Shown here one piece after another: positions 2,904 to 24,216 of a DNA stretch of 24,216 bases. The stretch is from the NCBI GenBank assembly GCA_036339735.1, contig JAYZAL010000081.1:1-24216 (forward strand), read 5' to 3'. Made by a program: the position numbers and the translations under genes. This stretch comes from Candidatus Poribacteria bacterium. GTDB taxonomy: Bacteria; Poribacteria; WGA-4E; UBA9662. Each line of letters opens with the position of its first letter. The stretch's first letter is position 1. The notes beneath the pieces were generated by a model. It ran no database searches and had not been told where the DNA came from. It worked only from the letters and a program-made list of their open reading frames with translations.

Positions 2904-5894
2904 CTAAAATTCTAACACCTCGATGACTGAATCTTCCTTCCGTACTACATAAACCTTGTCCGTAGTTACACAAATACCCAAGGGCATAAAGCCCACTTTG
3001 ATTGGTTCGGCAGCAACCTCGGCTTGCCAAACTTCAAACGGGCGGACTTCATTGGTTCGTGTCTCAAGCATAGTAATGGTAGAATCCCCCTGGTTAACTA
3101 CGAAAATCAGATCTCGATTGGGATGAAACCCCTGACTAACTGCTACTCGGACTGGGGAAAATCCAACGGATATTTCTTTGATCACCACTTGGTTAATGGC
3201 GTCAATGATGCTCAAGCTATTCCTCTTATTATTGACTACATACACAAATTGTTGGTTACTAGAGGTGGCTAGATCCGATGGGCCAAATACACTATTGATG
3301 CTTTTAATCGATCTATTTGACCGAGTATCGAAAATTTCAACCGTTTCACCAACTATGGCGTATAAGTGGCCATGAGTCAGTACCATTCGATTGGGTATCC
3401 TATTCCTGAGTGGTATAAGTAAGCCAATCTCTTTGCGTTGGCCCAGATCAACAACCGAGATCGTTCGGCTAGACTGATTAGCTACATAGAGACGATTAGC
3501 AGTCGGATCAATGGCTAGTCCGACAGGATAATTACCCACTGTTACTGCCACTGATCGATCCAATAATTCTGGCATAATAGAGATGGTGTCATCTTGAGGC
3601 GTACCCAATTTGGTCGGCTTAGCAAAGCTGTTGGCCACTATTACCTGGCCGGTTAATGGATGTACAATCAAGTCTTTTGGGTTTCGGCCGTCATTGGACA
3701 GGTCGAAAGTCTTTACTATCTCGTTACTGCTGACCGTAATCTGGCTGACAGTTGATGATTCACTGTTGATCACATAGGCAAAAGTACTATCACTCGATGA
3801 GATAATCTCGGTCGGTAGATCCAATTCTCTACCTTGAATTCGCCCAGATAGTTGGGGAATAGGTGTGAGTTGGATAATTTTTTCCACCAGTCGATGCTTT
3901 GCTGACCTTAGATTAACCGAGAAGGATTGATTTAGGTAACCCTCAGCCGATACTAAACCATTTATCATAGCAAGATCAGTATCCTTGAACTGGATCCGCC
4001 CGTCAACTTGTGCCTCTCGGCTCAACGCTTTAGCTTGAGAAATTGGTCGCCTGGTTTTGGCGTCTATCACTTTGAGTTCTAAGGTAGGCAGAACTTTAAC
4101 CATAACTGTCAATTCTAATCTTTTATCAATTTGATCTGAGTCAATTGTTAATACCGCTTGGCTACTACCTGGTGGCAAAGGACTACGGTCAACCTTAACT
4201 TGGACCATGATGGATTGGTTATTCAATTGTCCACGCTGAGGTTCAACCTGTAACCACTTTTGACTGGAATAGATTTCAAAATCAACATTACTAAACCCTT
4301 GACGAGATAATTGAAAACTTTGCTGTTTTTCTTTAGCTACCAACGACAATCTCGGCTTATCAACTAACAGGTTGGGACGATCAACCAACATGCTAACTTC
4401 TAACGGCCAATCACCACCATTACTAGTTATGGTAACGATCTGCCGATACTGTTTAGCAGCTAATCCTATCCGCACCACATCCAGATTGATAACTGATGAG
4501 GTTTGCTGGCTGGTGGTCCCATTTTGCGGTATGATCTTTAACCATTCTGGTTCCGGCACCAAAATTTGCCAATCCAGTTGTCCAGTACCTAGATTACGGA
4601 TGGTGAGGCTTGAATTCTTTGTACTGTTGTCAAAGTCAAGAGCTTTAGTGTTAACATGGAGCCGAGGGCTTTCATTCACCCTAATTGAGGCTCCTACATC
4701 CATCTGACCTCCGTTGGAAACGACTGTTAGTTGTTGTTGGTAGTTTCCTGGTCTCATATTTTGTCGGTCAGCCGTCAATTTAACGGAGGTAGAAGTTTGG
4801 CGAGTTTGTCCACTAGCAGGCTCAGCCCTAATCCACTTTTCTGGCGAGGTAATGATCCATTCCAGTGGACCGGTACCTCGATTCTCAATACTAATTGTTA
4901 AGCTTTGCTTATCTAGGCCAAAGTCTAATTTCTCCGGAGAGACGAAGAGTGCTGGTTTGGGTTTCACGTTGACAGTAATAGGAAATCTTTTGATACCGCC
5001 GTTGTGAGTAAAGGTTAGTTCCAGCTGATAAGCCTTTGGCTCAAGTCCATCCCGTTTGACCTCGATATGAATTGTATTTGGCATCTCTGGTTTAGCAATA
5101 CCTTTTAATTTTTCTAGTTTAATCCAGTTCTCTTTAGGTTTGTCCACCGTCCAATTCAGGGAACCTTTTCCCTCATTCTTAATAGTCAATTTTAGATTAT
5201 CTTTATCTGTACCAAAATCCAGACTGGTTTCTGAAAAAGCCAATACTGGTTTAAACGGTGGTAGTAAAATATCGGCTCGAGCCGGTTCACCTACCTGAAC
5301 GACTACATCCAGCTGCGTAATTTCAAAGCCTTCGACCTCTGCTATAACCACATAGCTAGCCGGCTGGAGTTTTTGGGAAAACCGGTAATTACCATCACTA
5401 TCACTGATAGCCACTGAAGTTGACGGAATAGTAGTCAATTTTACGTTTGATAGAGGATGTTGACTATCTTGATTAGTTACTATCCCGAAAATGGTCTGAG
5501 AATTCTGCTTTTCCAAGATCACATCAGTAGTTGAAGCAGCATCAATCACTGTTATCTGATTAATATAGGCTTGATAATCGGCTTTAGTGACGGTAATTTG
5601 GTAGATTCCGGCTACGATATCTCCAAACAGAAATTGACCGTTACTATCAGTGGTAACTGAATGATTCTCGGGTCCACTGATGGCTACCCGAGCACCCGAC
5701 AGGGGTTGTCGATTTTCGGCTAAGACTTTACCTTCAATCTGCAGATCTGTCTCATCGCTACAACCAATCGTCAATGATAAATAGAGACTAAAAACAAAAA
5801 GTATAATCCACGTCTTGACAGACCAAGAAGGTTGCTTGATGGGATAGTTGGAGAAAGCGTTTGTCAGATTAGTATCTAAAATATTGTTCATCAA
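2904..5894 (-). CDS. Large surface lipoprotein: 2 carboxypeptidase-regulatory-like domains, 4 BACON-like repeats, C-terminal YVTN/YncE-type beta-propeller
   Basis: Lipobox-like LTIGC after a hydrophobic stretch; GKV..PLSGARV..TDSNGQF..GIYQITVTK motifs; repeated PxLxV..LDFG..TIxNxGxGxLxW..W units; propeller blades LYVANQSSRTISVVD and VYVVNNKRNSLSIID. Start codon uncertain. Confidence 0.85.
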   Translation of the reverse strand: MMNNILDTNLTNAFSNYPIKQPSWSVKTWIILFVFSLYLSLTIGCSDETDLQIEGKVLAENRQPLSGARVAISGPENHSVTTDSNGQFLFGDIVAGIYQITVTKADYQAYINQITVIDAASTTDVILEKQNSQTIFGIVTNQDSQHPLSNVKLTTIPSTSVAISDSDGNYRFSQKLQPASYVVIAEVEGFEITQLDVVVQVGEPARADILLPPFKPVLAFSETSLDFGTDKDNLKLTIKNEGKGSLNWTVDKPKENWIKLEKLKGIAKPEMPNTIHIEVKRDGLEPKAYQLELTFTHNGGIKRFPITVNVKPKPALFVSPEKLDFGLDKQSLTISIENRGTGPLEWIITSPEKWIRAEPASGQTRQTSTSVKLTADRQNMRPGNYQQQLTVVSNGGQMDVGASIRVNESPRLHVNTKALDFDNSTKNSSLTIRNLGTGQLDWQILVPEPEWLKIIPQNGTTSQQTSSVINLDVVRIGLAAKQYRQIVTITSNGGDWPLEVSMLVDRPNLLVDKPRLSLVAKEKQQSFQLSRQGFSNVDFEIYSSQKWLQVEPQRGQLNNQSIMVQVKVDRSPLPPGSSQAVLTIDSDQIDKRLELTVMVKVLPTLELKVIDAKTRRPISQAKALSREAQVDGRIQFKDTDLAMINGLVSAEGYLNQSFSVNLRSAKHRLVEKIIQLTPIPQLSGRIQGRELDLPTEIISSSDSTFAYVINSESSTVSQITVSSNEIVKTFDLSNDGRNPKDLIVHPLTGQVIVANSFAKPTKLGTPQDDTISIMPELLDRSVAVTVGNYPVGLAIDPTANRLYVANQSSRTISVVDLGQRKEIGLLIPLRNRIPNRMVLTHGHLYAIVGETVEIFDTRSNRSIKSINSVFGPSDLATSSNQQFVYVVNNKRNSLSIIDAINQVVIKEISVGFSPVRVAVSQGFHPNRDLIFVVNQGDSTITMLETRTNEVRPFEVWQAEVAAEPIKVGFMPLGICVTTDKVYVVRKEDSVIEVLEF

Positions 5895-10925: not shown

Positions 10926-11639
10926 CTAGTCAATCATAGGAACATCTATAACTAGAAGACGTGAGTCAGTTTCGGCTGATATCTCAATTGATGAGGTGTT
11001 CCAAATACCTATGGCGTCTCTCTGATTGATTTTTTCTCCACTTATCTTAATCTCTCCTTCAAGTACAAAAACATAAACACCATTTCCTGTCTTTTTTATT
11101 TCGTAGGTTTGTTTTTTATCTCTATCGAATTCTCCCAGATAAAACCAAGCCTCTTGGTGAATCCAGGTACCGTCATCTTCAGGTATCGGAGATAATATTT
11201 GGTAGAGTTGATTTTTGATTTGCAAGTCGATTATTGAAATTTGGTCGTATCTCGGTACAACATCCTTTTTGTTAGGGATGACCCAAATTTGCAGAAATTG
11301 GACCTCACGGTTTTGGTTTTTATTGTATTCACTATGAAAAATACCTTTACCTGCACTCATTACTTGTACATCACCCTGTTGAATAATAGATCTGTTTCCC
11401 ATATTATCTTGATGCTCTAAACCTCCAGACAGTGGGATAGATATTATTTCCATGTTCTGATGTGAGTGCATACTAAAACCTTTACCAGCATCTACTCTAT
11501 CATCATTTAGTACTCTCAATGCACCAAAGTGCATCTTATCTAGATCAACATAATCAGCGAAGCTGAAACTATGGTACGATTCCAACCAGCCTAAGTTCGA
11601 AAATCCTCTATCTATCGAACGATGGACGATTTTATTCAT
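10926..11639 (-). CDS. Pirin family protein (YhhW-like quercetin 2,3-dioxygenase)
   Basis: GWLESYHSFSFADY, FGALRVLNDD, HSHQNMEII, MSAGKGIFHSEYN, FLQIW. Start placed at ATG 11639 (RBS GAGGGA) rather than TTG 11651. Confidence 0.95.
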   Translation of the reverse strand: MNKIVHRSIDRGFSNLGWLESYHSFSFADYVDLDKMHFGALRVLNDDRVDAGKGFSMHSHQNMEIISIPLSGGLEHQDNMGNRSIIQQGDVQVMSAGKGIFHSEYNKNQNREVQFLQIWVIPNKKDVVPRYDQISIIDLQIKNQLYQILSPIPEDDGTWIHQEAWFYLGEFDRDKKQTYEIKKTGNGVYVFVLEGEIKISGEKINQRDAIGIWNTSSIEISAETDSRLLVIDVPMID

Positions 11640-11748
11640 TAATTCCCTCAATTCAGTGATGGTTGTAGCTGATTTTGTTGGAAAGCAATTGAAGTAATAT
11701 GACTGGAAATTATACTTAGATCATATCATTTCAATTGCCTGACCAAGA

Positions 11749-12453
11749 TTATTCTTTTTCTGATTGATTTTTCGGAGGAACCGTAGTAGCTAACATCGAG
11801 ATTTCAATTTCTATTTCCTCACTCAGTTTCATCAATAGAAATTGAGGTACCTTAATTTGAAAATCGCTCAACTTTAAGCTAAAACTACCATCAATTTTAA
11901 GTAAATCACCGAACATATATCCAGCCTCTAACTCTTTGCTTCCTTTAAGATAAGTTACTTTGACTCTCTTCAACTGAAGATTCTTTTCTACCCCGTGCAA
12001 TGCTAAAATACCTTCTGCGTTGACGTAAGCACTTTTTCCACTTTCTAACTTTTGAGGCGTTTTTCGGTCATCTCCTTCAACTTTGACAATTTTGCTTATG
12101 GTTAAAGTTGCTTTAGGAAACTTTTCTGTTTCTAGGTATTGCTCTCTAAGATGCTCATCACGCATTGTTATTCCGGTCTTGATACTTGCTAGGTCGATCT
12201 CAAATGAGGCCTTCAAATTCTTGGTGATATCATCGGGATCAACAATAGTTTTTCCTGTGATCTGACTGGTCGTTCCAACAATAGTTTCTAAAGGAGCCTT
12301 AGACTTAAATTGGAATAAATCTTTGGAGTCGTAGATGTGGAAAGTGACTTTTGATTGATGATGATCAGCTGATATATTGACCAAAAGTGTAAAGAATAAA
12401 ACCAGATACAATGCAAGATGTAATACTTGTTTGTTAATTTTGTAATTGAACAT
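11749..12453 (-). CDS. YceI family (polyisoprenoid-binding) secreted protein
   Basis: IDLASIKTGITMRDEHLREQYLETEKFPKAT, GILALHGVEK, LSDFQI; signal peptide; start at ATG 12453 with RBS AGGAGA. Confidence 0.9.
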   Translation of the reverse strand: MFNYKINKQVLHLALYLVLFFTLLVNISADHHQSKVTFHIYDSKDLFQFKSKAPLETIVGTTSQITGKTIVDPDDITKNLKASFEIDLASIKTGITMRDEHLREQYLETEKFPKATLTISKIVKVEGDDRKTPQKLESGKSAYVNAEGILALHGVEKNLQLKRVKVTYLKGSKELEAGYMFGDLLKIDGSFSLKLSDFQIKVPQFLLMKLSEEIEIEISMLATTVPPKNQSEKE

Positions 12454-12545
12454 TAAATATTCTCCTGTGAACGAAATAACTGGCAAGCCAGGTAAAATTT
12501 GATTTTAAAACGGCGCAAATTGTACTTTTAAAGTTTTTTGTTGTC

Positions 12546-12606
12546 AAGTACCTACTTTTTTGTTATATTGTATTTGTAAAGTGATTTACTTACTAAAAGT
12601 ATACTA
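12546..12606. promoter_or_regulatory. Divergent promoter region with candidate HxlR-family operator
   Basis: AAGTAcctACTT (12546-12557) and TACTTACTAAAAGTATACTA (12587-12606), both TACT/AGTA-type palindromic elements, lie between the divergent yceI and hxlR genes. Confidence 0.4.
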
Positions 12607-12618
12607 TAGGTGGTGTAA

Positions 12619-12975
12619 ATGCCAATTGGTGGAAATGATCAAGTAACCGTTGTCAAGGAATCGGAATGTGGCGTAACAATAACGATGCAAGTCATAGGTG
12701 GTAAGTGGAAGATGCCAATTATCCATACTCTATCTAATGGTTTACAAAGATTTAGTGCTCTCAAACGTTTGATTCCAGATGTAACACAGAAAATGCTGGT
12801 ACAGCAATTGAGAGAGTTGGAAAGCCATGGAATCGTAAATCGGAAAGTTTATGCGGTAGTTCCACCTAAGGTTGAATATTCTTTGACTGAATATGGAAAG
12901 ACGCTAGCACCGATCCTCGAGTTAATGCATCAGTGGGGAGAGAAGCACGCATCAAAAACGAAGGAGATTAGCTAA
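12619..12975 (+). CDS. HxlR/DUF24 (MarR-type winged helix) transcriptional regulator
   Basis: [61 protein letters not shown]-terminal Cys as in thiol/quinone sensors. Confidence 0.95.
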
Positions 12976-16379: not shown

Positions 16380-16883
16380 TCTATTCACAATAACTCAGAT
16401 CCACAGCCTACCTTCTTCTCCTCTCAGACTGATTCTAATCATTCAGATCTCGATTACCAACAGCTTAAACTTCAAACCCTTCAACTTTGGCAAGATCAAC
16501 ACCAACAATTAGGTAACCCCCTGTCCTCCAACGCTGATCTTTATCAGATCATGCGACAGGATCATCCTCTCGGTATTGATGCTTTCGTCTCTCAGGCTTG
16601 CCAGTTAAGTCCTCATGTTAACCCCATTCAAGCCCTTCAGCTGCTTCAAGAGTGCATTAAAATCATGCCTCAAACTGTTGGTAATGGCCGCTCCATTGGA
16701 AGTCCTGGCTGGTTCCTCCTCTCTATCTCCGATTCCTTCTTCAAGCGGGCCTGGGCCAATACCTTCGACTTTATGCCCCTCTATTGGCAACAACATCAAA
16801 ATACCGCTCCTCATCCCCGGTCGCTCCAACCCGTTACTCGAGTCCGTAATCGCTCGGGTAAACCCCGTTCTTCTCACTTTTAA
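16380..16883 (+). pseudogene. 5'-truncated remnant of a foreign gene of unknown function (open frame of 167 codons)
   Basis: The frame of track ORF 16551..16883 stays open back to 16380, directly after the MATE TAA. Abrupt shift to C/T-rich, G-poor sequence with mostly pyrimidine-ending codons; no start or RBS at the 5' edge. Confidence 0.45.
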
Positions 16884-17559
16884 ACCACAATAACCGGATT
16901 CTAAACTCAAATTAAATTAATCACCAAACCCCTTTTAAAATCGTTTTAAAACCCGTTTACTTGGTCCAGTAATTTCAGCTTCAAACTCCAAAAAATTGAA
17001 CTTTAATCTCTGATTAGCTTAACAATGTCCCCCGCATTGCTGGGTATTGTTACTCTTTTTGACCCTTTTTGACTCTAAAATCCCTCCTGCCTGTCTTTTG
17101 CACCGTCATTTTTTTCAGATGGGTAGGTCATTAGACTGGAAAAGTACAGGTTTTTGCTGGTTAGACCTTTCTAGGTCTTATTTTTCTCTAATCAAGGTTG
17201 GATTTCTTCCGCTTTTGCCAAGCTTTTGGACCGCGATATTTCCCGCATATTGAGACCCTCCCAAATCAGACACCTAAACCTAACCAAATCCCAAATTAGT
17301 TGTTGACGCTCCCCTCTGTTACTGATTTTTCTAATCTTTAACTAATCTTTAAATTGATCATCTTTCGATTTCGGGGCCTCAAACCTTGACCAAAGGTTTC
17401 AAATTCAAAATAGATCATTTTTGATAGCGCAACAAGCTGAATTAGGGTTTAATGTTTTATAACTTTTGTTTTCCAGTCGATTCTGTCATACTGACTTTTT
17501 GTCAACAAAAATAAGTGGTTTCCGATCAGGTTATTTTTTGTACAGTATGGGGTAAGTTT

Positions 17560-21267: not shown

Positions 21268-21515
21268 TACTCACTTACCTGTTTAGTCTTCTGAAAAGGT
21301 TGTCACGGTTAATCCATCACTGTAAGAAATTTCTCGGGTTGTTTTACATATTTTTTGATGACCATAATTACCTTCTCCAAGTTCAACAAGCATTCTGGCC
21401 GAGGAAAGTTTAGTAGTATAGAGTTGGCCAATTTGGGTTTTGCTAATCCAGAAAACAGAATGAGAATGTTTACAAGTTTTTTCTCAAACAGGTTTAAATA
21501 ATAAACGTTCTATGA

Positions 21516-21710
21516 TTCATTCTAGCGGATCAGAGTAGTATTATTCGTAGCAATGCGATCAAAGTATTAGGAAATATTGGATCTAATGCTTTGATCGTAG
21601 TACCAGCATTAACTAAACTATTAGAAGATGAGTCTTGGATTGTTCCTGATTCGGCCGAAGTAGCATTGAGACAAACTAGTTCCGAGGATAAAGAAAGAGA
21701 CAAAACATAG
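21516..21710 (+). pseudogene. HEAT (PBS-lyase-like) repeat protein remnant
   Basis: Frame reads FILADQSSIIRSNAIKVLGNIGSNALIVVPALTKLLEDESWIVPDSAEVALRQ...*, preceded by an in-frame TGA (21513-21515); the nearby ATG 21512 is out of frame. Confidence 0.65.
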
Positions 21711-21900
21711 TTTATTAAAGTTCAATTAGAAAAAAAACAAAAACCTGAATGATCAAAAATAGAACTTAAGTTCTGGGTCAAATTTTTTACTACTGCCAGT
21801 TTGCCACTAGTTATCGGACGTTTATTTTGAGGCTTTTGACTGGGAATTTGGCAGTGTTAGTACAAGGGGTTGTGGTTGCAGGCTGCCAGTTGGATAGATA

Positions 21901-21928
21901 ATGTCCGATAAAAACCATTATCAGACAT
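21901..21928. other. dif/Xer-like tyrosine recombinase core site (11-6-11)
   Basis: ATGTCCGATAA-AAACCA-TTATCAGACAT; the inverted repeat extends to 14 bp (21898-21931) with one mismatch; TAA-N6-TTA architecture. Confidence 0.6.
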
Positions 21929-22158
21929 TATTCAAACCTCTGCGGTCCGTTTGAGACTATTTCAGCCTCAAATTAAAATCCAGCATAACAGCCGAATATT
22001 AGCCAAATAATTGGTTCTTAGACTCTAGATTAAACCCCTAAACCAATTAATTTGTTTCTGGATTGGCGATTCCAACTGGTTAGACAATTGGTCCATCCGA
22101 TCTCAATTCGGATCTTACCCAACTGGTAGACTGAAATTGCCGGTAAATTTTCGGTAAA

Positions 22159-22187
22159 TTGCCGCCAAAATTAAGGTATGATAGAAT
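22159..22187 (+). promoter_or_regulatory. sigma70-type promoter upstream of the FGE-sulfatase gene
   Basis: TTGCCG-17 bp-TAGAAT, with extended -10 TG at 22179-22180. Confidence 0.5.
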
Positions 22188-22263
22188 CCGCCCAATTTCT
22201 TTGGTTCAACCATACTAACTAATGATTGTCTTAACCCATCTCAAATAATAGCTGGAAACTAAA

Positions 22264-23248
22264 ATGAAGCAGATAAGCCCAATCTTATTGATCCTATTAT
22301 CAGTAATAACCAGTCAGGCCCAAGATAGTAATCGCCCGCCCGAAATAACCAATGTAGTAGCTCAACAGGTAGAGATTACTTATAACCTGTTAGACCGAGA
22401 TGGTGATTTGATGACGGTTAGCCTGCAAGTCTCATCTGATAGTGCTGGTAACTTTGACACAGAAGCCAGAAGCTTAACTGGTCAAATAGGTGAAGGCATT
22501 GACAGTGGTAGCTGGTGACAACGTGGGACCCAGAGCTGGATTTGTTCATCCTACTGACGGAGCTAGTATGGCACTGATACCGGCTGGTAGATTTGAGATG
22601 GGCGACCACTTAGATGGAATGAGTCGAGCCCTACCAGTCCATACGGTGTCCTTGGATGCCTTCTATATGGATGTACATCAAGTGACGGTGGGCCAATTCA
22701 AGCAGTTTGTCACTCAGAGTGGGTATAACTATAACAGGTGGAATGAGGTGGCCCAGGATTCGCCGGGCGATGACTATCCGATGGTCTATGTCAATTGGAA
22801 TGATGCCACCTCTTATGCCGCATGGGTGGGTAAAAGGCTACCAACTGAAGCCGAGTGGGAGTATGCGGCTCGAGGAGGTTTAGAGGGCCAACGTTATCCG
22901 TGGGGAAATGAGATAACACACGATAATGCTAACTATGGTGGCACAGGCGGTATTGACCATTGGGATAGATGTTCGCCGGTAGGCAGTTTTGCGGCTAACG
23001 GATATGGGTTGTATGATATGGTAGGTAATGCTTGGGAATGGTGTCAGGATTGGTATGATGAAAATTACTATAGTAGTTCACCAGTCAACAACCCACCCGG
23101 GCCGGACTCTAGTCCACAAGGATGGCGAGTCTTGCGCGGGGGCAATTGGGATAATCATGGCAAGTACTTACGTCTGGCTTACCGCTACGCCAATCCCAAT
23201 CATAGGAGCTACTACAGCGGGTTTCGTTGCGTGCTAGGATCTGATTAG
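22264..23248 (+). pseudogene. Secreted FGE-sulfatase/SUMF1 (CLec-fold) domain protein, split by a frameshift near 22505
   Basis: ORF 22264..22518 gives a signal peptide and the start of an Ig-like N-domain. ORF 22490..23248 (+1 frame) gives the full domain: IPAGRFEMG, VTVGQF, PMVYVNWNDA, RLPTEAEWEYAARGG, NGYGLYDMVGNAWEWCQD, RVLRGG.W, GFRCV. The domain alone might be translated from ATG 22568. Confidence 0.8.
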
Positions 23249-23353
23249 TACTGTGGCCACCTCGGGTGGAGGGGGTTTTACTATTGGCAAAGCCACGGCC
23301 TTTACTGTCCTATGTTGAAGAAGATTTGTTCAGTTGGAATACCGTGGTGATAA

Positions 23354-23853
23354 GTGGCTGATCAAAAACCAGTCAGAATAGAACTGAGAGATCGTGTTAT
23401 GGATTTGGATATTGAGTAGTCTAACCGTTTTAGGCTGGTCGGCCACGCCGTTCAGAGACGATCACCATTGATGTCAGGATGCGGCCTACCATTTTCCAGT
23501 ATCAGCCCGGCCCAAGGCACTACTTTAGGTGGGAGAGCTAACCACGGTGACGGTCACCTTGCAGAACTCGGAATCTATACCGGTCAGCGGTCAATCGGCC
23601 GAGATCAGCTTAGAGCCCGGCTGATCAAACCACTATCATTCAACCAACTGATTTAACCAATCGGCAGGGACAGACCACGGCCCAACTGCTGGTTAAGCAG
23701 TCGGGTTTAAAAATCATCAGCTCTAGATCAGGCGACTTGCAACTCTCAACCGCGGCCACTATCCTGTTTGAAGCTGGCCCACTGGATCAGATCCAACTAC
23801 AGGCCCAACCCAAACGAGTAAAACCGAAAGCAGCAGCCACTATTAAGTTTTAG
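23354..23853 (+). pseudogene. Fragmented Ig-repeat surface protein (signal peptide, IPT/TIG start, Big_1 invasin-type domain)
   Basis: Successive frames read IVLWIWILSSLTVLGWSATP / ETITIDVRMRPTI / SSISPAQGTTLGG / ELTTVTVTLQNSESIPVSGQSAEISLEP / ADQTTIIQPTDLTNRQGQTTAQLLVKQSGLKIISSRSGDLQLSTAATILFEAGPLDQIQLQAQP...*, with at least 4 frame changes. Confidence 0.65.
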
Positions 23854-23967
23854 TCTCATGCGTGGATTTTTCTTTTGAGGGAAGAAGCTGTTTTGAAAAC
23901 GATGAGCGTGTTTGACAGCTGGACATACAGTTATCATAACGTCGTATGTAGAAAAAATGGCTTAATA

Positions 23968-23995
23968 ATTTCCGATAAGGCTCATTCTCAGCCGT
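23968..23995. other. Second, degenerate dif/Xer-like site
   Basis: ATTTCCGATAA-GGCTCA-TTCTCAGCCGT; left arm plus flank is 13/14 identical to 21898-21911, right arm 8/11 identical. Confidence 0.4.
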
Positions 23996-24094
23996 TTTTA
24001 TATCTGACTTGGATTTGCGTCATTATGGCTAGTAGACAGTCAGTTCAAGCTGCTGAAAATCATGTTTCTTTGAAAAAAATCAAAATCAAAAATA

Positions 24095-24125
24095 AAAAAG
24101 GCACTCGGCAACGACGTAGAGTGCC
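24095..24125 (-). terminator. Rho-independent terminator of the incoming minus-strand gene
   Basis: Minus strand reads GGCACTC-12 nt loop-GAGTGCC followed by a T-run, about 20 nt after the stop at 24145. Confidence 0.75.
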
Positions 24126-24144
24126 CTGAATAGCGTAAGTGAAA

Positions 24145-24216
24145 TTAATTGTTAGTAGAAGTACTTCTGATCTGCCCCCAGGTGACGGTAAGTTTGTTGG
24201 TAGGCTCAACAGCTGT
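24145..24216 (-). CDS. 3' end of a secreted Poribacteria-type protein (enters from the right edge of the window)
   Basis: Reads ...TAVEPTNKLTVTWGQIRSTSTNN*, the same tail as the LamG proteins, and is followed by a terminator. Confidence 0.8.
   Translation of the reverse strand, partial: TAVEPTNKLTVTWGQIRSTSTNN

Follow-up and report, generated by a model that had tools for sequence, protein, structure and literature searches.

The 24,216-nt contig C81 of a Candidatus Poribacteria bacterium, analysed here in its entirety and referred to as the window, comes from an assembly of 4.32 Mb in 107 contigs (40.6% GC, 92% complete) and carries, close to one end, two directly oriented palindromes (sites 1 and 2) that resemble the recombination sites of Xer-type tyrosine recombinases and enclose the segment 21929-23967. 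The palindromes probably belong to the family of core sites of the single Xer tyrosine recombinase of this lineage, with extra copies serving as joints between gene modules and the enclosed segment as one such module in decay. In relatives the site family is linked to the xer gene, the flanks of its members form a mosaic, and one crossover-like break is found.

Sites 1 and 2 and their family in the genus

The following site features were located in the window:

21811..21821, plus strand: distal half-site TTATCGGACGT, an inverted copy of the adjacent site 1 arm about 80 nt away
21899..21930, minus strand: site 1, a full Xer-type core site with the minus-strand sequence TAAT GTCTGATAA TGGTTT TTATCGGAC ATTA
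21901-21928, plus-strand reading: core of site 1, ATGTCCGATAA-AAACCA-TTATCAGACAT
23966..23997, minus strand: site 2, a degenerate core site oriented like site 1, with the minus-strand sequence AAAC GGCTGAGAA TGAGCC TTATCGGAA ATTA
23968-23995, plus-strand reading: core of site 2, ATTTCCGATAA-GGCTCA-TTCTCAGCCGT

The arms of site 1 are complementary at 10 of 11 positions around the 6-nt spacer, and the site forms a marked hairpin (z -7.1) when folded as single-stranded DNA. Over the 22 arm positions there are 4 differences between the two sites, so that a search allowing three mismatches overlooked site 2; its well-kept arm (TTATCGGAA) faces the enclosed module and its degenerate arm faces the contig end, 221 nt off. 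The sequence TTATCRGAC occurs three times in the window against an expectation of 0.38, a count reached in none of 100 shuffles. Both sites score best on the minus strand and are therefore direct repeats, and TG is the only part of the spacer common to the two. The positions at which the first-pass annotation, made from the sequence of the window, had placed both 11-6-11 sites and the half-site proved exact on re-reading; the direct orientation of the two full sites and the suspected difference between their spacers also stood, and the sites are intergenic as claimed, in that no supported gene overlaps them (site 2 lies inside a mechanically called open reading frame (ORF) of 84 aa with no Pfam match).

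A 32-nt position matrix trained solely on 14 sites from two sister genomes of the genus identifies 15 distinct positions scoring at least 20 bits in the 4.32-Mb genome, including site 1 (43.4 bits) and site 2 (30.5 bits), and, except for opposite-strand readings of the same 15 sites, no other position reaches 12 bits. The genus consensus is TAAY-GTCYGATAA-N6-TTATCRGAC-RTTA, and all listed members have the 28-bp form with two inverted arms of about 11 bp, an inner core of ATAA-N6-TTAT and a spacer of 6 nt. A variable spacer length had been named beforehand as a finding that would speak against a Xer-type family; the length is always 6. The pattern that the first-pass annotation had put forward for a genome-wide scan has three matches in the genome (four and seven with looser cores), and site 1 matches it exactly. 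One position first counted as a site (C30:46388) failed the matrix and was dropped, and matches at 15 of 18 positions on C6, C16, C44, C47 and C70 were set aside as noise, of which C44:31064 later passed the matrix.

The sites are polar. Three genomes of the genus and one metagenome contig supplied 44 sites. TG is present at one spacer end and absent from the other in 39 of them (28 of these 39 reading TGA), and in 33 the two arms differ at position 4, which is T in one (the T-arm) and C in the other (the C-arm). Where both asymmetries are present, the T-arm adjoins TG in 28 of 29 sites. The copies next to the xer gene, described below, are symmetric.

A single Xer-type recombinase in relatives

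Comparison with related genomes ties the motif to a tyrosine recombinase. With one mismatch allowed, the motif was found in 30 of 41 related genomes, at no more than 14 matches per genome, and the reversed control pattern matched a single one of these genomes. In each genome one copy, with a conserved spacer, is situated upstream of a gene of about 300 aa, the product of which consists of Phage_int_SAM_1 (PF02899) and Phage_integrase (PF00589) domains. The recombinase was used to fetch 41 loci (38 from Poribacteria or close kin and three from other phyla; site threshold at least 15/18), and in 37 of the 41 the start codon of the recombinase is preceded, at a distance of 110-224 nt, by a perfect palindromic copy; all 37 are among the 38 Poribacteria or kin (0 of 3 in the other phyla). 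The six catalytic positions (the RKHRHY set) are invariant in seven recombinase sequences. Against NCBIfam the protein scores best with XerD, XerC and archaeal XerA, falling short of the cut-off of each; among solved structures XerD (1a0p) and XerA (4a8e) come closest to it, and in all four genomes checked it is the sole strong Xer-type gene product.

Gene and motif have similar distributions. The recombinase gene is present in all 22 genomes of families f3 and f4 and in none of the 12 genomes of family f2, and the motif is present in the same 22 genomes and in three of the 12, as single matches. Those three matches apart, family f2, of which four genomes are in 1-4 contigs, was noted as lacking recombinase and motif alike. 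The Xer proteins of different families are only about 55% identical, yet the arm sequence is retained. Judged by these sequence relationships, a Xer-family recombinase in a single-recombinase system very probably uses this motif as its core site, as the first-pass annotation had supposed from the near-symmetric arms; the palindrome just upstream of the only Xer-type gene bears this out.

In five complete genomes the xer-proximal site is located 0.36-0.49 chromosome lengths from dnaA. This copy is probably either the dif site of the chromosome or a control site of the recombinase itself, the role of dif being likely by elimination. The window sites are two of 15 copies and hence are not dif proper.

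A gene of about 129 aa is found directly downstream of xer in all families examined (L014:4278-4667 in a relative; C36:162-533 in the present genome). Its product has no Pfam or NCBIfam match, and the N-terminus looks ribbon-helix-helix-like by eye; the protein might assist the recombinase as an accessory factor, or be a rival for binding the palindrome. In another relative, a second recombinase fragment (L043:5965-6724), truncated or frameshifted and containing only Phage_int_SAM_1, lies beside a site in a cassette-like cluster.

Modules, cargo and accessory elements at the sites

Several observations suggest that sites join modules. When the 150-nt flanks of the sites were compared, they fell into 14 families, with a flank family shared on one side by 49 pairs of sites and on both sides by a single pair. 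Flank family 1, which includes the element beside site 1, occurs with four different partners, and with a fifth on a metagenome contig. An AIM24 module (C95:4703-5894) is 98% identical over 1192 nt to that of a sister species, versus 90% for the adjoining syntenic backbone, and the homology passes through the T-arm and TGA to end within the spacer. Sites are concentrated near contig ends (12 of 14 within 2.5 kb of an end, against 12% of the genome; binomial p 8e-10), as are many of those in sister metagenome-assembled genomes (MAGs). Judged from coordinates only, a META-domain module is on opposite sides of a common segment in two genomes, and two same-genus genomes show no synteny to contig C81 taken as a whole. 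Modules bounded by Xer-type sites thus occur in varying combinations. Two loci with the same 459-nt spacing of sites in two genomes were tried as related and proved unrelated.

Genes near the sites encode AIM24, cupin, PhyH, aldo-keto reductase, LamG, FGE-sulfatase, ankyrin, metallo-beta-lactamase fold and CotH proteins, a DNA methylase, TIR defence proteins, a ParB-like protein and many unknowns. Sites also form arrays, such as five sites within 2.5 kb, in which some intervals have no ORF of 80 aa. The Xer-site cassette system envisaged by the first-pass annotation is supported in part, by the fit of genus-wide evidence (mosaic flanks, the homology break in a spacer and the enrichment at contig ends); its restriction to surface or ligand-binding genes is not, the cargo being heterogeneous. 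Some of the genes directly adjoining sites in relatives are of defence type, namely those of a CAP12/Pycsar-type TIR effector, a TIR-TPR protein and a DNA methylase (L035:3199-3987, L034:3248-4795 and L041:3949-5433).

The features beside and between the two window sites are:

21796..21898, plus strand: conserved accessory element of about 105 nt (flank family 1), directly joined to site 1 on its C-arm side and holding the distal half-site
21951..21979, plus strand: promoter-like hexamers TTGAGA-17-TAAAAT from a consensus scan (unverified), 23 nt past site 1 and directed toward the FGE gene
22037..22123, minus strand: conserved tail (flank family 4) on the T-arm side, 74.7% identical over 91 nt to C95:5743-5833
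22264..22518, plus strand: N-terminal fragment of a cargo gene from the ORF list, with a signal-peptide-like start, ending at a stop; no Pfam match
22490..23248, plus strand: FGE-sulfatase domain (SUMF1-like, C-type-lectin-fold; PF03781, E 3.4e-63)
23529..23853, plus strand: Ig-like (Big-type) remnants in two stop-to-stop frames, labelled by eye with no family search made

The accessory element has five copies in this genome with 72-84% identity (the one on C81; C19:651-789; C19:100463-100600; C95:6682-6811; C14:50678-50825) and further copies in two sister genomes and on one metagenome contig. Its homology stops at the outer edge of the palindrome, and the half-site is kept in all five aligned copies. 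The half-site is accordingly a conserved part of an element fused to site 1, rather than isolated as it had first been described. No known RNA family was found by an Rfam search of 21500-24216, which includes the element, and 140 nt of element plus site fold weakly better than shuffles (z -2.1 to -2.6), the short palindrome dominating the fold. On the other side of site 1, the family 4 tail is grouped with the T-arm flanks of C95:5869 and G002_C62:3907; a tail of about 90 nt is common to the window module and an unrelated AIM24 module, on C95 and in a sister genome.

An intact homologue of 479 aa aligns with the cargo gene in two frames, through its residues 6-52 to the N-terminal fragment (frame 2) and through residues 74-329 to the FGE domain (frame 3). 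Because the domain and the N-terminal fragment are in different frames, the FGE gene is frameshifted near 22500. Its GC content of 0.505 is the highest among 36 paralogue matches (median 0.452). No more than two of the 36 matches have a site within 3 kb, and the sites are thus not associated with the FGE family as a whole. The Ig-like remnant has no paralogue in the genome by tblastx. A promoter and terminator scan gave counts in the region that do not exceed those of shuffles; read from the sequence, a leader of TTTACA-17-TATATT is at a similar distance after other sites (C30, C48 and L134). The contents that had been proposed for the segment (promoter, FGE-sulfatase gene and Ig pseudogene) are therefore upheld for the FGE gene, though frameshifted, and by eye for the Ig remnant, but the promoter is a mere consensus match without enrichment. 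On the explanation favoured here, segment 21929-23967 would be a docked module that is now decaying.

A suggested combination with a diversity-generating retroelement (DGR) fell away: no reverse transcriptase (PF00078) was detected in the 92%-complete assembly, no template/variable repeat pair in the window, and no repeat of the FGE 3' end within the window. A repeat of 80% identity in C14 was considered as a DGR-type repeat and turned out to be two similar gene 5' ends.

Elsewhere in the window, 16389-17111 is a multi-copy element of about 720 nt, C-rich on the plus strand and without a Pfam or Rfam match, with copies at C14:47852-48573 (85%), C47:107219-107753 and C88:170876-171273 and many in a sister genome; in three cases it is 2-5 kb from a Xer-type site. 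Tandem LamG (Laminin_G_3) paralogues are encoded at 517-1266 and 1677-2438 and share a 300-nt stretch that is 92% identical; LamG genes often adjoin sites in sister genomes, and no site is near these two. An ordinary-looking cluster at 10926-12975 comprises pirin and YceI on the minus strand and a divergent HxlR-type regulator.

Proposed mechanism, alternatives and known systems

From the sequence patterns we infer that the recombinase would bind and cut these sites by a one-strand mechanism, and that the window module may have moved in this way. Extra polar copies would be placed at joints between small unrelated gene modules of the flexible genome. Xer dimers would bind the arms of two such sites, and the strand beside the T-arm would be exchanged with the aid of the common TG(A), the variable rest of the spacer blocking or slowing the second exchange. 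Modules may hence be joined, swapped or inserted via a one-strand-exchange intermediate; such intermediates are established for CTX-type elements and integron cassettes. The window module would have docked beside the element of about 105 nt. This element, which includes a third half-site, may have a role similar to that of the cer and psi accessory sequences.

A bolder proposal, which we advance tentatively and would not call probable, is that Poribacteria use their housekeeping Xer recombinase to run a chromosomal integron-like cassette platform, the cargo being defence genes and expanded families of symbiosis type (FGE-sulfatase, LamG, PhyH and ankyrin), with conserved accessory elements docking the arrays. 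Polar 28-bp sites having TG(A) in common beside one arm would permit one-strand exchange between sites that are otherwise heterologous. Such a platform would be a main driver of genome plasticity in this phylum of marine and sponge-associated bacteria and an independent invention of the integron principle.

Several results weigh against the explanation by module joints. The xer gene was not assembled in this genome: a PF00589 scan gave just two weak long ORFs, and tblastn with the proteins of four relatives gave one weak match on C49 (25.9% identity, E 1.4e-4), one of these same ORFs, which is not an xer orthologue. Of the xer locus only the 129-aa downstream neighbour is present, at the very start of C36, and the first 200 nt of that contig do not contain the 3' end of xer. 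Synteny with a same-genus genome ends at the start of C36, which places xer just off the contig end, and one same-genus genome has the recombinase (L022:1501-2385, minus strand) with its catalytic positions invariant. In one complete relative, 20 sampled 20-kb windows gave a noisy GC skew with no switch at the xer-proximal site. The 44 sites from which polarity was counted had been chosen by a matrix already containing that polarity; the same asymmetry appears in a symmetric pattern search. In families f3 and f4 the extra sites are symmetric and their spacers unrelated, a combination that fits poorly with recombination between sites.

The positions of breaks are also partly adverse. It had been anticipated that relatives would lack 21930-23965 and have a single site at the junction, but no empty site, second copy or alternative junction of the window module was found; the sister genomes have no orthologue of the left neighbour, nor of the module above 73% identity, a 22-nt tag from the element led to one metagenome contig with another element copy, a different partner and a different locus, and a search for contig-end overlaps gave none for C81. 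A sister genome has a homologue of the module with only 70% identity and with inverted, not direct, sites on either side. Breakpoints were likewise expected to coincide with sites: one homology break does lie inside a spacer, but sister-species synteny ends at C95:3911, 760 nt before the first site, the other end of the AIM24 module in the sister genome is 100 nt from a site, and at a variable island in another genus the sites are offset from the edges by 140-700 nt. In that genus, moreover, 8 kb between inverted sites with matching spacers are colinear in five of five relatives, and the orthologous positions of the two sites carry diverged palindromes, from which it follows that some members of the family are stable intergenic features. 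At a conserved intergenic position (L138:136-159 and L139:206-229), one relative has GTCCAATAA-N6-TTATTGGAT, with the same change in both arms; matching changes of this kind hint that the dyad symmetry itself is under selection. Exactly where the 90% synteny ends on C95 there is a repeat of about 85 nt (3911-3994; L009) that is unrelated to the sites and has many copies (82-89%) in a same-family genome.

Some of these results would suit palindromes that serve as operators of a dimeric regulator, either a Xer-like repressor or the small protein encoded downstream of xer, with no exchange of DNA. Many sites precede a start codon by 20-220 nt. Another genus has two sites in conserved syntenic intergenic positions, each about 20 nt ahead of a gene, and none of the five relatives compared is rearranged there. 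The spacer varies as freely as would be expected of an operator, the copy upstream of xer could be autoregulatory, and the 129-aa neighbour of xer is conserved and ribbon-helix-helix-like by eye. We nevertheless regard operators as unlikely. The genes near sites do not form a coherent regulon, a symmetric dimer leaves the placement of TG beside the T-arm unexplained, as it does the 98% identical module that ends in a spacer, the mosaic flanks and the accumulation at contig ends, and the catalytic residues of the recombinase are all invariant. Restriction of the motif to promoters, which had been named as a sign of an operator, was not observed; apart from a few sites in the other genus about 20 nt upstream of starts, sites also occur at gene 3' ends, in arrays without ORFs and among heterogeneous neighbours. 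A different possibility, to which we also assign a low probability, is that the sites are decoy dif-like targets at which the host Xer integrates foreign DNA one way, leaving decaying hot spots with no excision or reshuffling, as for integrative mobile elements exploiting Xer (IMEX). The variable islands with defence genes and sites 140-700 nt from their edges are compatible with this, as are the decay of the window module with its one degenerate flanking arm, and passages of PMC11705084 in which Xer sites on Acinetobacter plasmids are reported to fuse replicons and not to excise modules. Arrays of up to five sites 240-1700 nt apart, some with little or no coding capacity between them, are unlike phage-type elements, however, and neither the recurrence of the same families of module ends in many pairings within one genome nor the dispersal of sites away from the xer-proximal site would be expected of decoys. 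Least credible is a selfish short palindromic repeat, similar to repetitive extragenic palindromes or miniature inverted-repeat transposable elements, that spreads by another route, breaks short-read assemblies and resembles the xer site incidentally. The sites are indeed multi-copy, intergenic, palindromic, flanked by conserved elements of 90-135 nt and near contig ends, but their copy number is low for such a repeat in all 41 genomes, the arms are kept across families in spite of the divergence of Xer, the motif is missing where xer is missing, and an assembly with k=141 should get through repeats that are 28 bp long or 75-85% identical.

Should the explanation by module joints be true, with gene modules on the chromosome of an uncultured phylum being shuffled by its housekeeping recombinase, then Xer would have given rise to the integron principle on more than one occasion, a mechanism would be at hand for the large accessory-gene families of sponge symbionts, and there would be a reason why Poribacteria MAGs break at the same kind of place. 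A full-text literature search, supplements excluded, found no paper that ties Poribacteria to Xer, dif or gene cassettes, the few co-mentions of Poribacteria with those terms being on other subjects. The literature on dif modules and pdif sites found in the same search concerns Acinetobacter throughout.

Among known systems, sedentary chromosomal integrons share with the present sites the arrays of small, mostly single-gene, unrelated modules with conserved ends, a recombinase from a Xer-related branch and a plausible exchange of one strand. The arrays described here, in contrast, are dispersed and not beside the recombinase gene. An identity of the recombinase with IntI was rejected (TIGR02249, 93.5 bits versus a cut-off of 265), as was an identity of the sites with attC: the hairpins of attC are 57-141 nt, whereas these are duplex-type palindromes of 28-32 bp that fold weakly better than shuffles. 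The single-recombinase systems XerS/difSL, XerH/difH, archaeal XerA/dif and XerL of Legionellales likewise combine one Xer-type enzyme with a near-palindromic 11-6-11 site, which lies immediately upstream of the gene, but they have one site per chromosome, in contrast to as many as 14 extra copies in flexible regions here.

The IMEX (CTX, TLC and VGJ phages; microvirus proviruses of Bacteroidetes) resemble the modules in having no recombinase of their own, in being flanked by dif-like direct repeats and in showing spacer homology limited to one side, a feature that in IMEX suggests a single strand exchange. The modules differ from IMEX in their size of 0.3-2.6 kb, in the absence of replication or phage genes and in not being at the xer-proximal site. 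The flanking of the microvirus proviruses by dif-like repeats is described in an excerpt of PMC3091885, in which dimer resolution is said to have been unstudied in Bacteroidetes as of that paper. The accessory sequences of cer and psi are comparable with the conserved element here in occupying about 100-180 bp on one side of a core site, except that the element here carries a third half-site of the recombinase type.

The closest described kind of system is the Acinetobacter dif module, and modules bounded by Xer sites have so far been described almost only for Acinetobacter plasmids. In both cases 28-bp Xer-type sites with a 6-bp spacer bracket small accessory modules, the spacers differ among sites, the modules occur in varying combinations and the mechanism is debated; for plasmid Xer sites of Acinetobacter, replicon fusion in place of excision is reported in PMC11705084. 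Unlike the Acinetobacter modules, which depend on the XerC/XerD pair, have pdif sites alternating in orientation between C/D and D/C and reside on Rep_3 plasmids and also on chromosomes, the Poribacteria sites have near-symmetric arms and one recombinase, are direct repeats in the window, and are found on chromosomal contigs (with chromosomal genes) of an uncultured marine phylum, where they are accompanied by conserved elements of 90-135 nt and a cargo other than antibiotic resistance.

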